NCBI RefSeq assembly: GCF_055900595.2
Contig: NZ_CM148325.1
Direction: 5' to 3' (one strand)
Length of the DNA: 64,000 nt
The first letter of the stretch is position 1. Each line of letters begins with the position of its first letter. Below, piece by piece: positions 2,945 to 11,486 of the stretch. The translations under genes and the position numbers were made by a program. The notes below the pieces were generated by a model that worked only from the letters and a program-made list of their open reading frames with translations, was not told the origin of the DNA and did not search any database.

Positions 2945-3150
2945 GGCAACTCCAGTTTATGTATTTGTCTGGAAAAATTCACCGCCACAAACTACCACTA
3001 AAAATGTGGTTTTATATTTTTTGCCGCCGTGAATATGTAATTCACAGTTCGTGAATCAACGCGAAAATAAGAATGAATATTGCGCCAGAGCAGGGAATGG
3101 CAATGTTTTGCGAAATACACTGCGCTTATCATAACTGCGGATAATTAACG

Positions 3151-6178: not shown

Positions 6179-7417
6179 TTAATCAGGCTTTGGACAACGT
6201 TGTTCCTTCCAGCTGGCTACCGCCGCAATCCGCCGTCGGGTCAGCTCTTCGCGAATCTCCACACCTTTAAATCCCGCTTCAACGACGGCTTTTGTCGGCA
6301 CTGACTGTGCCACTTCCCAGGCTTCGCGCAACCAGCGGCCTTGCGGGTAGTCCGCTGATTCAAAACCGGTTCTGCCGCGCACATCAGCCTCGCTGGTCAG
6401 CGCCAGTTGCTCGACACGCTGCGGTTTACGCCAGGCGTCGATGGAATCAAATAGTTTGACGATGGTTTTTGGGTTCAGCATTGGGAAGGTGTGGATGAGA
6501 TCGTGAAACTCAGCCACCAGTCTGGCTAAATCGCGAATTTCATTTGGCACGCGCAGACGCTGGCATAGTTGTTCCACTAACTTCACACCCACCGGGCCAT
6601 GACCATGATGACGCGGCCAAAGTTCTGGCGGCGTCAGTCCTTTACCGAGATCGTGGCATAGCGTTGCGAAACGGACATCGACCTGCGGACTTAGCATCGC
6701 CGCCATTGAGAGCGTCATTAAGGTGTGAATACCGGTGTCGATTTCCGGATGCCACTTGGCAGGGGCCGGAACGCCAAACAGGGCGTCAATTTCCGGGAAT
6801 AAAACGCGCAGTGCGCCGCAATCGCGCAGTACCTGGAAGAACACCTGGGGATTGCGGGTAGTGAGGGCGCTTTCCGTCTCTTTCCACACCCGTTCAGGCG
6901 TCAGGTGTTCCAGTTCACCCGCGTGGGTCATCTCGCGCATCAGCGCCAGAGTTTCATCGGCAATACGAAAACCGAGGTGGGCATAACGCGCAGCAAAACG
7001 CGCCACGCGCAGTACGCGTAACGGATCTTCGCCAAAAGCGGGGGAAACATGGCGCAACAGACGATTTTGCAGATCGCCCAGACCGTTGTACGGGTCGATA
7101 ATCTCGCCGTTATCGTCCTGGGCCAGCGCATTAATGGTCAGATCGCGCCGCTTAAGATCATCTTCCAGCGTGACATCCGGTGCGGCATAGCAGGTAAAAC
7201 CGGTGTAACCGGAACCGGATTTCCGTTCGGTACGTGCCAGCGCATACTCTTCATGCGTTTGCGGATGCAGAAAAACAGGAAAATCGCGGCCTACCTGCTG
7301 GTAGCCCGCGTCGAGCATCTCCTGTGGCGTACTACCGACTACCACCCAATCTCTGTCTTTGACCGGTAGCCCTAACAATGCATCCCGAACAGCACCACCG
7401 ACCAGATAAATCTTCAC
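6179..7417 (-). CDS. cca: tRNA nucleotidyltransferase (CCA-adding enzyme) with HD phosphohydrolase domain
   Basis: 412-aa [31 protein letters not shown]...; HD motif (LCHDLGKG). Confidence 0.9.
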
Positions 7418-7480
7418 GCCATCATCCCTTCGTCAAATACACAATTCCTAATAATAAGACAGTGCAACGAAGAAGGCGAT

Positions 7481-8101
7481 TTAGTTCATCCAGCGATCTT
7501 TACGTTTGCGCGTTGGGATCAGGTGCGGCAGTACCAGACCGAGCAGCAAGCCAAGCCCCAGCACGCCGCCACCATACATAAACCACTGCATGATGATGGT
7601 GCGCTGTTTGTCATCCAGCTGCACGCTGGCGGCATCGACCTTTTTCTGCGCGACAATCAGCTCGTTTTTCAGTTTCTGATTTTCTTCTTTTAACCCGTTG
7701 ATCACGCTGTCGCTCTGCGCCACTTTTTGCTGCATTTCTGCGGTGCGCTGATTCCAGGTGTTATCGATATTGGTGAGCTTATCGGTCAGGGTTTTGACCT
7801 GATTTTCCAGATCTGGCACACGGGAGCGCAGGCTTGGCTCTGTGCTAAGTTGTTTCAACGGGATCCAGGCAGTACGGCCAGAGCTGTCTTTCACCTGGGC
7901 ATAATTGGTGTTGGCGTCAGTTTGTAATAAGGTCACTTCCTCGCCGGCGTTAACCGTGCCCACGAGGCGATAATGGTCTCCCGGACCGCTACGGACCCAG
8001 GTATTCAGTTCGTCAGAAACATAGCGCGTTTCTTCAGCGTGTGAGACGGCAGTGGCGCTAAGCGCGAGTAAAGTTAATCCGATCAGGCGTAATTTTGGCA
8101 T
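7481..8101 (-). CDS. ygiM: SH3-domain signal-transduction protein YgiM (HtrG)
   Basis: 206-aa ORF with signal peptide, coiled-coil segment and C-terminal TM helix. Confidence 0.8.
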   Translation of the reverse strand: MPKLRLIGLTLLALSATAVSHAEETRYVSDELNTWVRSGPGDHYRLVGTVNAGEEVTLLQTDANTNYAQVKDSSGRTAWIPLKQLSTEPSLRSRVPDLENQVKTLTDKLTNIDNTWNQRTAEMQQKVAQSDSVINGLKEENQKLKNELIVAQKKVDAASVQLDDKQRTIIMQWFMYGGGVLGLGLLLGLVLPHLIPTRKRKDRWMN

Positions 8102-8443
8102 CAGGCTGTCGTTATTGTCATGGAAAGTGGAACGATAGTAGTGGCATCAGTGTCGCTACGCAAAGCATTCGACATCAATCGGAATCCTCTGTGTCAGGTC
8201 TTGCCACTGCTTCAAACTTTTACGCCCGTCAAATTGCCCGTTGCATGGCAATTTGGCGCAAAATACTATCTACTGACAAAAAAGATCGCATTAAGTTCGC
8301 CGTTCATCGTCACTTATGTGACATAACCGATAAGTAAAGGCCTTGACATCCTCCCCCACCTTCGCGCAAAGCGACTCAGGAGGGGGATTCCCTTGTCAGG
8401 GTAGCAATACGTTGCCGCATTGCCCGGTTCCTCGCTCGACGGC

Positions 8444-9649
8444 TTACGCCGCCTTACGGGCGCGTCCTTTACGGACTGACGGCAATATTTGTCCTGCCGC
8501 CATGACTTCAAAACCTGCTGTTAATATATTGCGAGCGCCGTTTACATCGGCGTTTGCCGTATAGCCGCACGCGGTACAGATAAAGCTCGCCTGCGTCCTG
8601 CGGTTATTTTTCGATGTATGCCCACAACATGCGCATTTCTGACTGGTGTACGCCGGATTAATCGCCAGCACATCACCGCCGCGCCATGCCTGCTTATATT
8701 CGAGCTGGCGGCGCATTTCTGCCCAGCCCTGATCCAGTATCGCCCGGTTAAGACCTGATTTTGCCGCGACGTTGCGCCCCGGCTGGTCTACCGTACCCGC
8801 TGCTGATTTTGACATGTTCGAAACCTTTAAATCCTCAATGACTATCATCGCGTGGTTTTTGCTGATCGTCGTCGTGGTTTTATGAAGGTAATCGCGGCGG
8901 ATGTTTGCGATATGAGAGTGGAAACGGGAAATCTTCGCTTTCTGCTTTTTCCAGTTGGCGGAGAATTTAACCATCCGGGCCAGACGGCGCTGTAAGCGAG
9001 CCAGCTTATCCTGATTTTTTTTAAAGCTGTTTACCGGTTCAAAGACCGTGCCGTCTGAAAGTGTTGCCAGCTTTGTTATACCTGCATCCAGGCCTATTGC
9101 GCTGGTCGATGCGTGAATCGGATCGGTAACAGCTAATTCGACCTGAAAAGACACATACCAGTGTCCGGCATGCTGGCTGATGGTGCAATTTTTAATGACG
9201 CCTTCAATCTTCCGGGACTGACGAAATTTAACCCAGCCCAGTCCTGACGAGAGTTTCACACGGCCATAATCCAGCCCACAATATTTGCTGAAATTGACGA
9301 ACCGGATAGAGTCGCAGCCTTTGGTTTTCTTTTTGAAAACGGGCTTTTCAGCCGTCAGGGATTTATCAAAACAGCGATCCCATGCGCTCCGCAGGTCTTT
9401 CAGTTTCTGCTGGAGGTTGTCAGTGTAACCCTCAGCAAGAAAGGCCAGCTCAGGGAGTTTTTTCCAGCCCGTAAGTCGTTTATTCAGGTCGAAAGCTGAC
9501 GGAATTTTTCCGCCCGCGTCATGAATGCTCAGTGTTTCATTCAGTGCATAGTTCCAGACAAAGCGAGCGCAACCGCACAACTGACGCAACCTTTGCGCCT
9601 GCTGGTCAGTGGGGTAGAGCCTGTATTTATATGCTTTCTGGATTAACAT
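8444..9649 (-). CDS. tnpB: TnpB (OrfB) RuvC-like putative RNA-guided endonuclease of IS200/IS605 family
   Basis: 401-aa ORF; RuvC-I (AIGLDAGI), RuvC-II (IVIEDLKV), zinc finger CACCGH...CTACGY, RuvC-III (NADVNGARNI) all present. Confidence 0.9.
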   Translation of the reverse strand: MLIQKAYKYRLYPTDQQAQRLRQLCGCARFVWNYALNETLSIHDAGGKIPSAFDLNKRLTGWKKLPELAFLAEGYTDNLQQKLKDLRSAWDRCFDKSLTAEKPVFKKKTKGCDSIRFVNFSKYCGLDYGRVKLSSGLGWVKFRQSRKIEGVIKNCTISQHAGHWYVSFQVELAVTDPIHASTSAIGLDAGITKLATLSDGTVFEPVNSFKKNQDKLARLQRRLARMVKFSANWKKQKAKISRFHSHIANIRRDYLHKTTTTISKNHAMIVIEDLKVSNMSKSAAGTVDQPGRNVAAKSGLNRAILDQGWAEMRRQLEYKQAWRGGDVLAINPAYTSQKCACCGHTSKNNRRTQASFICTACGYTANADVNGARNILTAGFEVMAAGQILPSVRKGRARKAA

Positions 9650-9661
9650 TTTGCATTCAGT

Positions 9662-10114
9662 ATGTGGTTATTTAGAATGTACAATATATCCACATTTTTT
9701 TGGGAGGATCAATACGTGTGCGAAATCAATCGTTCACGCTATTCAGCTTACCTGTTGCATGTTCACGTTGTTTTTATGACAAAATACCGCCGTCCAGTTT
9801 TTGGTGAATTGCATCATGCAAACATGCGTCAGTATGTAGCGGAGGTATGCGCGGACTTTGGCGCCGAGTTAAAGGAATGTGACGGCGAGGCAGATCATGT
9901 TCACATGCTGATTGAATACCCACCGTTGGTGCAACTCACAAAGCTGGTAAACAGCCTTAAGTCCGTTACCAGTAGGCGGCTGCGGAATGATTTTATTGAT
10001 TTGCGCGCCGCGTATTCAAAGCCCGTACTCTGGTCACGCTCTTATTTCATCGGTTCATGTGGTGGAGCACCGCTGGAAGTTGTGAAAAAGTATATTCAGA
10101 ATCAGCGTGGCTGA
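9662..10114 (+). CDS. tnpA: IS200/IS605-family Y1 (HUH) transposase TnpA
   Basis: 150-aa ORF; HVHML (HuH) motif and C-terminal catalytic Tyr region (SYFIGSCGG); true start may be internal to the track ORF. Confidence 0.82.
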   Translation: MWLFRMYNISTFFWEDQYVCEINRSRYSAYLLHVHVVFMTKYRRPVFGELHHANMRQYVAEVCADFGAELKECDGEADHVHMLIEYPPLVQLTKLVNSLKSVTSRRLRNDFIDLRAAYSKPVLWSRSYFIGSCGGAPLEVVKKYIQNQRG

Positions 10115-10184
10115 TAAACTGCGGGCTTAACAGCCCAAATTCCCCTCCCGCCTACGTTGGGGGGGAGTACCCAGTGGAGGAAGG

Positions 10185-11486
10185 ATGGCTCAGGAAATCG
10201 AATTAAAGTTTATTGTTAATCACAGTGCCGTTGAGGCGTTGCGTGACCATCTCAATACGCTGGGCGGCGAGCACCATGACCCCGTGCAGTTGCTGAATAT
10301 TTACTACGAAACGCTGGATAACTGGCTGCGTGGGCACGACATGGGCTTACGTATCCGTGGCGAAAACGGTCGCTATGAGATGACCATGAAAGTTGCAGGA
10401 AGAGTGACAGGCGGCTTACACCAGCGCCCGGAATATAACGTGGCTTTGAGCGAACCGACGCTCGACCTGGCGCAGTTACCGACGGAAGTCTGGCCGAACG
10501 GCGAATTGCCTGCCGATCTCGCTTCCCGCGTACAACCGCTGTTCAGCACCGATTTTTATCGCGAAAAGTGGCTGGTAGAGGTCGATGGTAGCCAAATTGA
10601 AATCGCTCTCGACCAGGGGGAAGTGAAAGCGGGGGAATTTGCTGAGCCTATCTGCGAGCTTGAACTGGAACTGCTTAGCGGCGACACGCGCGCCGTGCTG
10701 AAACTGGCGAACCAACTGGTATCGCAAACCGGATTACGTCAGGGCAGCCTGAGCAAAGCCGCGCGCGGCTATCATCTGGCGCAGGGCAATCCCGCGCGTG
10801 AAATCAAACCGACCACCATTTTGCATGTTGCGGCAAAAGCCGATGTGGAACAGGGGCTGGAAGCGGCGCTCGAGCTGGCGTTAGCGCAATGGCAGTATCA
10901 TGAAGAACTGTGGGTCCGCGGCAACGATGCGGCGAAAGAGCAAGTGCTGGCTGCCATTGGCCTGGTCCGTCATACGCTGATGCTGTTCGGTGGCATTGTG
11001 CCGCGTAAAGCGAGCACTCACTTACGTGACCTGCTGACTCAATGCGAAGCGACCATCGCATCTGCGGTGTCTGCCGTAACGGCGGTCTACTCTACCGAAA
11101 CGGCGATGGCGAAGCTGGCGTTGACCGAATGGCTGGTAAGCAAAGCCTGGCAGCCGTTTTTAGATGCCAAAGCGCAGGGCAAAATCAGCGATTCTTTCAA
11201 ACGCTTTGCCGATATCCATCTTTCCCGCCATGCCGCTGAACTGAAAAGCGTTTTCTGCCAGCCATTAGGCGATCGCTACCGTGACCAATTGCCGCGCCTG
11301 ACGCGTGACATTGACTCAATATTGTTGCTGGCGGGTTACTACGATCCTCTCGTCGCGCAAGCCTGGCTGGAGAACTGGCAGGGACTGCGTCATGCCATTG
11401 CGACCGGGCAACGCATTGAAATTGAACATTTCCGTAATGAGGCAAACAATCAGGAACCGTTCTGGTTGCACAGCGGAAAACGTTAA
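10185..11486 (+). CDS. ygiF: inorganic triphosphatase (CYTH + CHAD domains) YgiF
   Basis: 433-aa [14 protein letters not shown]... (CYTH EXEXK motif); immediately upstream of glnE. Confidence 0.88.

Follow-up and report, generated by a model that had tools for sequence, protein, structure and literature searches.

A predicted guide-RNA locus at the tnpB 3′ end of an ISEc41-family insertion element between ygiM and ygiF of Escherichia coli

Does the insertion element lodged between ygiM and ygiF on an Escherichia coli chromosome encode, at the 3′ end of its tnpB gene, an RNA guiding the TnpB nuclease, and if so, where does this RNA end and which sequence would it target? In the element ISDra2, the TnpB-bound RNA is composed of the tnpB 3′ end and the right end of the element, the last ~16 nt coming from the flanking DNA (PMC8612924). 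The locus was analyzed in a window of 64 kb (the whole stretch of DNA studied, 64,000 nt), which harbors the chromosomal genes bacA, cca, ygiM, ygiF, and glnE. In line with the prediction from the sequence, though within other limits, the omega-RNA (right-end RNA) serving the TnpB of this ISEc41-family element is very probably encoded on the minus strand from 8460 to 8327. The guide RNA had not been annotated before but is almost certainly an ordinary representative of the TnpB guide-RNA class. The locus comprises the following genes and signals:

8101-7481, minus strand: ygiM, the gene beside the right end of the element
8343-10184, minus strand as the top strand: complete IS200/IS605 element of the ISEc41 family, 1842 bp (K-12 empty-site alignment and RefSeq)
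8444-9649, minus strand: tnpB, encoding an RNA-guided endonuclease of 401 aa (ORF, RefSeq, and phmmer)
9662-10114, plus strand: tnpA, encoding a Y1/HUH transposase of 150 aa, divergent from tnpB (ORF, RefSeq, HVH motif and SYF tyrosine in the translation)
9683-9712, minus strand: weakly supported candidate promoter 5′ of tnpB (consensus scan, 9 of 12 matches)
From 10185, plus strand: ygiF, divergent from ygiM, the element sitting between the two

The limits of the element are exact. Global alignment to the empty site of E. coli K-12 placed the left end at 10184 and the right end at 8343, both junctions being unambiguous (...AAGGCC|TTGACATCC... and ...GGAAGG|ATGGCT...) and devoid of a target duplication; read on the minus (tnpB) strand, the element terminates as ...GGGGGAGGATGTCAA|GGCCTTTACTTATCGG. 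The right-hand boundary was also followed in three sets of relatives, i.e., five plasmid copies (from Klebsiella, E. coli, and Arsenophonus plasmids), 34 bacterial genome loci found via the TnpB protein (TnpB identity down to 46%), and at least 129 distinct metagenome or genome cores. Their similarity ends exactly at ...GGAGGATGTCAA| (8343, after TCAA), and the flank is different at every insertion. An end of the element near 8300, as originally predicted, is therefore contradicted by the empty site and the relatives alike. The interval proposed for the locus (8250-8460) holds at its upper limit, where 8460 coincides with the predicted 5′ end of the scaffold, but its lower part (8250-8326) is host intergenic DNA belonging to neither scaffold nor guide. 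The tnpB stop codon (8444-8446) and the right end are separated by 101 nt, non-coding and structured; a right end abutting the stop and leaving no scaffold, which had been named among the findings that would speak against a guide RNA, is not what is seen.

The 100% identical RefSeq locus is described as an InsQ/TnpB-family RNA-guided endonuclease together with an ISEc41-family IS200/IS605 transposase (tnpA). By its translation, TnpB is full length with an intact catalytic site: phmmer matched it to ISDra2 TnpB (8H1J/8EXA) over residues 2-379 at E = 7e-47, the RuvC triad (D188, E272, and D368) falls into the conserved catalytic D/E/D columns, and the zinc ribbon displays two CxxC motifs, CACC and CTAC. 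A protein of this make-up would be expected to act as a nuclease.

The supply of the RNA appears to be linked to that of the TnpB mRNA. A consensus scan revealed no sigma-70-like promoter on the minus strand within the 3′ part of tnpB, so biogenesis would depend on transcription of tnpB followed by processing. The site at 9712-9683 is the only promoter-like one on the minus strand in 8200-9800 and hence a candidate source of the precursor transcript. ISDra2 TnpB has been reported to produce omega-RNA by processing the mRNA of its own gene (PMC10278001), and, by analogy, processing of the tnpB transcript is likely the main route here: the guide RNA would be co-transcribed with tnpB and then probably cut from the 3′ part of its mRNA.

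The lack of an internal promoter is also in line with another reading, according to which the omega-RNA locus is real but a relic, that is, a fixed and vertically inherited copy in one E. coli lineage whose RNA and TnpB are no longer expressed or active. Of 5426 complete E. coli genomes, 146 have the element at the ygiM/ygiF site, which is empty in the remainder. Each carrier has one copy of the element, the full locus residing at the same site in 146 of 146, and the right-end portion recurs at ≥99% identity in about 150 records. Since the element is single-copy and found at the same site in all carriers, it may be inactive at present; inactive natural TnpBs do exist, e.g., that of IS608 (HpyTnpB), for which the assays of Meers et al. 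showed no activity (bioRxiv 10.1101/2023.03.14.532601). Still, the tnpA and tnpB frames are intact, and so are the catalytic residues, the two ends of the transposon, and every scaffold helix, which argues against decay, and a relic is regarded as rather unlikely.

The predicted guide-RNA scaffold is built of the following parts, all on the minus strand:

8343-8460, minus strand: predicted omega-RNA scaffold, ~118 nt (identity to relatives, fold, covariation, and model R1)
8430-8460, minus strand: stem 1, CCCGU (8460-8456) with GCG(A)GG (8435-8430), predicted from the MFE fold and by analogy to relatives
8453-8438, minus strand: hairpin GGCGGC-GUAA-GCCGUC, 6 bp, inside stem 1 (MFE fold)
8426-8432, minus strand: AGGAACC motif, invariant in 12 of 12 sequences of alignment A1
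8403-8424, minus strand: helix P1, 9 bp, with a GCAA (GNRA-type) tetraloop (covariation in 12 relatives)
8390-8401, minus strand: helix P2, a short CCC(U)/(A)GGG hairpin (covariation, one double-changed pair)
8390-8387, minus strand: GAAU before P3
8352-8387, minus strand: helix P3, the subterminal hairpin of the right end, spanning 36 nt and including an internal stem (inverted repeat I4 and covariation)
8343-8351, minus strand: invariant tail GGAUGUCAA, ending in TCAA, the last scaffold sequence before the guide

The scaffold would thus overlap the last five codons and the stop codon of tnpB and end at the right-end boundary; its 5′ end is placed near 8460 by analogy. Its core of 90 nt (8432-8343) consists of AGGAACC, P1, P2, GAAU, P3, and the tail. 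The arms of P3 (8352-8361 and 8378-8387, inverted repeat I4) are 90% complementary and represent the imperfect palindrome noticed earlier at 8350-8392, which proves to be the subterminal hairpin of the right end. The minus-strand segment 8560-8323 (238 nt) folds at -102 kcal/mol vs. -80 ± 4.6 kcal/mol for shuffled sequences (z = -4.8), a value matched by none of 200 shuffles. Identity to the Klebsiella plasmid relatives amounts to 86-89% over 8467-8343 (125 nt) vs. about 80% over the last 558 nt.

The pairing was assessed in alignment A1, comprising 12 relatives sharing the scaffold architecture, with pairs counted on the proposed structure. In this alignment, 93.5% of the cells were paired vs. 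45-54% when the 3′ partners were slid by 1-3 columns; changes on both sides were recorded in 12 of 26 pairs, and the covariation score (0.416 vs. 0.191 ± 0.020 in shuffled alignments) was reached by none of 500 shuffles. Most of the signal is carried by P1, in which eight of nine pairs changed on both sides, 92.4% of the cells are paired, G-U pairs are frequent, and the loop is always of the GNRA type (GCAA, GUAA, or GCGA). For P3, the respective figures are 94.8% and three double-changed pairs; for P2, 91.5% and a single double-changed pair, which lends this helix weak support. A covariance model built from the same 12 sequences (R1) gave a single match in the 64-kb window, at 8432-8343 with 105.9 bits, and retrieved other subgroups of the scaffold family at 14-64 bits.

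The 5′ part of the scaffold is best seen in a broader sample. An equivalent of stem 1, a long-range helix in which the bases immediately 5′ of AACC pair with a segment ~40 nt upstream, covaries in 122 distinct relatives (CCUGU/GCAGG in 60, CCUCU/GGAGG in 15, and CCUAU/GUAGG in one). The sequences of stem 1 and of the 5′ end are invariant within the window's own subgroup and yielded no covariation support there, so stem 1 of this copy is assigned by analogy. RNAalifold returned no consensus structure for the 5′ region across all subgroups because this alignment mixes different architectures.

Could the conserved right end be a DNA signal only, i.e., a single-stranded hairpin and cleavage site for TnpA plus constrained C-terminal codons of tnpB, with no functional RNA? 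In IS608 of Helicobacter pylori, the hairpins are subterminal and confined to one strand, while terminal inverted repeats and a target duplication are both lacking; its right end is cut after TCAA, and GAAT precedes the foot of the hairpin on the 5′ side. The window's element matches IS608 in the hairpins, the GAAT, the TCAA cut, and the lack of duplication, and its right end looks like a TnpA substrate in presenting the top-strand subterminal hairpin (8352-8387), a TCAA end in all relatives, and no target-site duplication. TCAA is the commonest right-end cleavage site in a published survey (PMC9956272). P3, the GAAT preceding it, and the terminal TCAA would accordingly qualify as TnpA recognition features of the IS608 type, and P3 would be conserved for TnpA anyway. 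Moreover, the helices could form in DNA, as pairing on the opposite strand is almost equal (89.2% vs. 93.5% on the tnpB strand, a modest preference). However, the strongest covariation is found in P1 (eight of nine pairs) and stem 1, which are situated 15-70 nt 5′ of the TnpA hairpin and are mostly non-coding; conservation of P1, non-coding and upstream of that hairpin, is difficult to account for by a role in DNA. GNRA tetraloops and many G-U pairs are characteristic of RNA, and the experimentally studied TnpB elements all make a guide RNA from the same region (PMC10097598, PMC8612924, bioRxiv 10.1101/2023.03.14.532601). A purely DNA-level role is accordingly judged highly improbable; P3 probably serves both purposes, as the single-stranded DNA recognized by TnpA and as the final stem of the scaffold.

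The presence of several stable GC-rich hairpins directly after the tnpB stop codon might also suggest a transcription terminator of tnpB or a 3′ structure stabilizing its mRNA in place of a guide scaffold. Yet no U-tract follows any of the hairpins, and a scan of the minus strand in 8200-8460 revealed no terminator, nor is there a terminator-like site after the guide. A terminator would likewise have no need for the invariant single-stranded AGGAACC and GGAUGUCAA or for a precise end at the transposon boundary, so there is hardly any room left for this explanation. A palindrome formerly suggested as a part of the hairpin-rich region does occur (gtcacttatgtgac), but at 8309-8322, one base away from the reported 8308-8321, in host DNA and outside the RNA. 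As a scaffold part or terminator, this GTCACTTATGTGAC (8309-8322) was rejected: it is host DNA present in K-12 as well, with no T-run after it. With a 5+4+5 layout, it has no statistical weight, and it lies 3′ of any guide of 16-20 nt.

The guide-RNA reading, then, is the one in which the exact boundary, the 101 nt of structured sequence, the covarying helices, the variable 3′ flanks, and the apparently intact TnpB come together, and the earlier proposal of a minus-strand guide-RNA locus across the tnpB 3′ end and the right end is borne out at this level. The features bearing on the guide and its target are as follows:

8327-8342, minus strand: predicted 16-nt guide GGCCUUUACUUAUCGG, host DNA on the ygiM side (a 20-nt guide would reach 8323)
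10100-10184, minus strand: left end of the element (alignment of the left ends of relatives)
About 10142-10167, minus strand: left-end hairpin, with GGTA (plus-strand TACC, 10168-10171) 5′ of its foot
10185-10188, minus strand: predicted target/TAM CCAT (plus-strand ATGG, the ygiF start codon and a G), host DNA in the K-12 empty site

The expectation that the guide would stem from the ygiM-proximal flank agrees with the K-12 empty site, where 8342-8327 is host DNA on the ygiM side. The predicted guide sequence is unique in the 64-kb window, and in the empty site the DNA matching it directly adjoins CCAT. In two Klebsiella copies (L003 and L004), the scaffolds are nearly the same and the flanks unrelated. 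Transcription into the flank is presumed, and the guide length of ~16 nt is adopted by analogy to ISDra2 (PMC8612924).

A motif search located CCAT immediately outside the left end in eight of eight independent insertions of the window's subgroup, whereas blastn-short with the left end returned the same E. coli insertion only. The GGTA 5′ of the left hairpin is complementary to CCAT position by position. In IS608, the left-flank and hairpin-foot tetranucleotides, likewise complementary by position, are TTAC and AAAG; their counterparts in the window's element are CCAT and GGTA. The predicted target is CCAT here vs. TTAC in IS608, and the gene order here is divergent. The CCAT/GGTA pair fits the DNA-guide rule put forward for target choice by TnpA (bioRxiv 10.1101/2023.03.14.532601). 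Since TnpA and TnpB have been reported to use the same motif (PMC8612924; bioRxiv 10.1101/2023.03.14.532601), CCAT is also the predicted TAM of TnpB.

Collectively, these features suggest the following sequence of events. TnpB would be bound by the ~118-nt scaffold, comprising stem 1 with its GNRA hairpin, AGGAACC, P1, P2, P3, and GGAUGUCAA, and transcription past 8343 would make the final ~16 nt a copy of the host flank GGCCUUUACUUAUCGG. Excision by TnpA would leave a rejoined minus-strand site in which CCAT directly meets the right flank, the predicted donor joint target being CCAT|GGCCTTTACTTATCGG. The TnpB–RNA complex could then recognize this site by the CCAT TAM and the guide match and cut it, so that repair from the sister copy would restore the element.

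How similar is the predicted RNA to that of ISDra2? The likeness includes its placement on the tnpB strand, across the tnpB 3′ end and the right end into ~16 nt of flank, and its length (~118 nt predicted here vs. 116 nt in the resolved ISDra2 scaffold; PMC10097598). An ISDra2-like Deinococcus element (L164) shares the layout of the 3′ module, i.e., GAAUC, a hairpin, and GAGG..UCAA. This element ends in GAAUC-ACGCGAC-UUCA-GUCGUGU-GAGGUUCAA, and the scaffold family of the window's copy in GGAAUCC-hairpin-GGAGGAUGUCAA. The terminal hairpin of the Deinococcus relative is shorter, with a 4-nt loop fitting ISDra2 stem 4 (PMC10097598), whereas P3 spans 36 nt; the segments of the Deinococcus element fit the published numbering of stems 2-4 and the pseudoknot, but those of stem 1 do not pair. 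Model R1 did not find this Deinococcus locus at E ≤ 10. A terminal module resembling stem 4 and a long-range helix resembling stem 1 were found, while the 5′ half of the window's scaffold (AGGAACC, P1, and P2) is unlike ISDra2. The two systems also differ in the TAM (predicted CCAT here vs. TTGAT in ISDra2), in the orientation of tnpA (divergent here, overlapping and co-directional in ISDra2), and in that the ISDra2 RNA is known experimentally and the present one predicted from sequence.

The pseudoknot of ISDra2 was sought as well. Its partner segment there is GGAAU, a counterpart of which was not located in the window's scaffold. The P2 loop UGACA is complementary to UGUCA of the tail in the window but not in the relatives, and this pairing was discarded as a coincidence; a UGA triplet capable of pairing with UCA recurs in other subgroups and is absent from that of the window. 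The tail was fixed by the search pattern, so the collected sequences are uninformative as to covariation at this position.

Known RNA families were also consulted. RF03065 and RF02998 have been named as TnpB-associated RNA families; according to Meers et al., these two Rfam models cover a small subset of such RNAs (bioRxiv 10.1101/2023.03.14.532601). They are, like the present scaffold, structured RNAs at the 3′ end of orfB/tnpB genes of the IS605 family. The covariance-model search against known omega-RNA families advised in the original prediction came back empty: cmscan of 7400-10800 against Rfam 15 gave no matches at E ≤ 10, RF03065 and RF02998 included. Yet the scaffold class is common: at least 120 metagenome contigs matched the AGGAACC-anchored pattern AGGAACC..GGAATCC..GGAGGATGTCAA. 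In E. coli K-12, the IS609/insQ-type elements carry a related tnpB whose coding part is about 77-78% identical in DNA sequence, but this similarity ends near 8514, and the last ~170 nt, harboring the scaffold and the right end, are unalignable by blastn. A literature search retrieved no study of the RNA of the window's element: full-text matches to ISEc41 concerned resistance genomics only, those to IS609, insQ, and ISEc46 included no work on this RNA, and those to the tail sequence were unrelated primers.

It is tentatively proposed, as a possibility with somewhat worse than even chances, that the scaffold class AGGAACC ... GGAAUCC-hairpin-GGAGGAUGUCAA, abundant in Proteobacteria and metagenomes, represents a distinct structural variant of TnpB guide RNA, its 5′ part lacking the ISDra2-type pseudoknot and its TAM, CCAT, being new and not T-rich; the same proposal holds that the element supplies the ygiF leader and ribosome-binding site and that the guide matches native ygiF leader DNA beside the start codon. 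For basic biology, the locus is of little consequence, TnpB guide RNAs at the right ends of IS200/IS605 elements being already established. One gain is in annotation, with exact boundaries, a scaffold model, and a guide becoming available for a non-coding RNA that recurs in hundreds of plasmids of Klebsiella and E. coli as well as in 146 of the 5426 complete E. coli genomes. A very common scaffold class devoid of an Rfam family constitutes a database gap, and the CCAT TAM predicted for this TnpB subgroup is of interest for the mining of compact genome editors.

The neighborhood of ygiF deserves a separate remark. A general role of the left end in targeting start codons and supplying a ribosome-binding site was considered and dismissed, as two other insertions (L005 and L006) adjoin no annotated gene start; since at least these two are not at such a start, the adjacency to ygiF looks accidental. 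In the window, the insertion sits exactly on the ygiF start codon, with the native ygiF leader replaced, so that the leader and ribosome-binding site of this gene would now be supplied by the element.

The element is inserted directly 5′ of the ygiF start codon (ATG at 10185; window 10170-10190), and the native ygiF leader, which reads ...TAAAGGCC|ATG in K-12, is displaced by 1.8 kb. The sequence preceding this ATG is now the left end of the element (GGAGGAAGG|ATG), and tnpA is oriented toward ygiF, so the expression of ygiF may have become dependent on the element. As for tnpA itself, the annotated start (ATG at 9662) gives rise to an odd N-terminus, MWLFRMYNISTFFWEDQYV. An in-frame GTG at 9716-9718, located 7 nt downstream of GGGAGGA, looks likelier as the start codon.

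On the side of the right end, the ygiM–ygiF intergenic DNA harbors two host palindromes, CGTCAAATTGCC/GGCAATTTGGCG (window 8227-8258) and GTCACTTATGTGAC (window 8309-8322). K-12, whose empty site is the same intergenic DNA lacking the element, has both of them there as well; they may represent regulatory sites of ygiM or ygiF.

The 3′ region of tnpB was also compared with that of its relatives. Compared over window 8514-8900, genes of the type of E. coli K-12 insQ (IS609-type), which are approximately 77–78% identical to the window tnpB and are found in thousands of E. coli genomes, lose their similarity near 8514; hence, their 3′ end and right end differ from those of the window element, as presumably does their guide-RNA scaffold. 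Relative to its Klebsiella relatives, the window tnpB carries an 18-nt insertion at ~8480-8510, just upstream of the predicted scaffold, which looks like a partial duplication of AAG(H/Q) codons.

The terminal hairpin of the right end (window 8392-8343) recurs as a 50-nt, 90%-identical copy on many E. coli and Salmonella plasmids (matches H155-H167), several copies sharing the coordinates 3041-3090 (e.g., NZ_MN334220.1 3041-3090). Most have no annotated gene beneath them; these copies may be solo ends or remnants.

Several draft-genome contigs (L008, L015, and L036) terminate exactly at ...GATGTCAA, which suggests that assemblies are interrupted at this repeat. At locus L003 (1-600), two IS605-family elements lie at most ~450 nt apart, with a right end at 64 and the next left end at ~510. 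A metagenome contig (L130, 3398-3487) represents the same E. coli insertion as that in the window, with an identical flank, and carries a C-to-G change breaking one base pair of P1, the 9-bp helix of the predicted scaffold.
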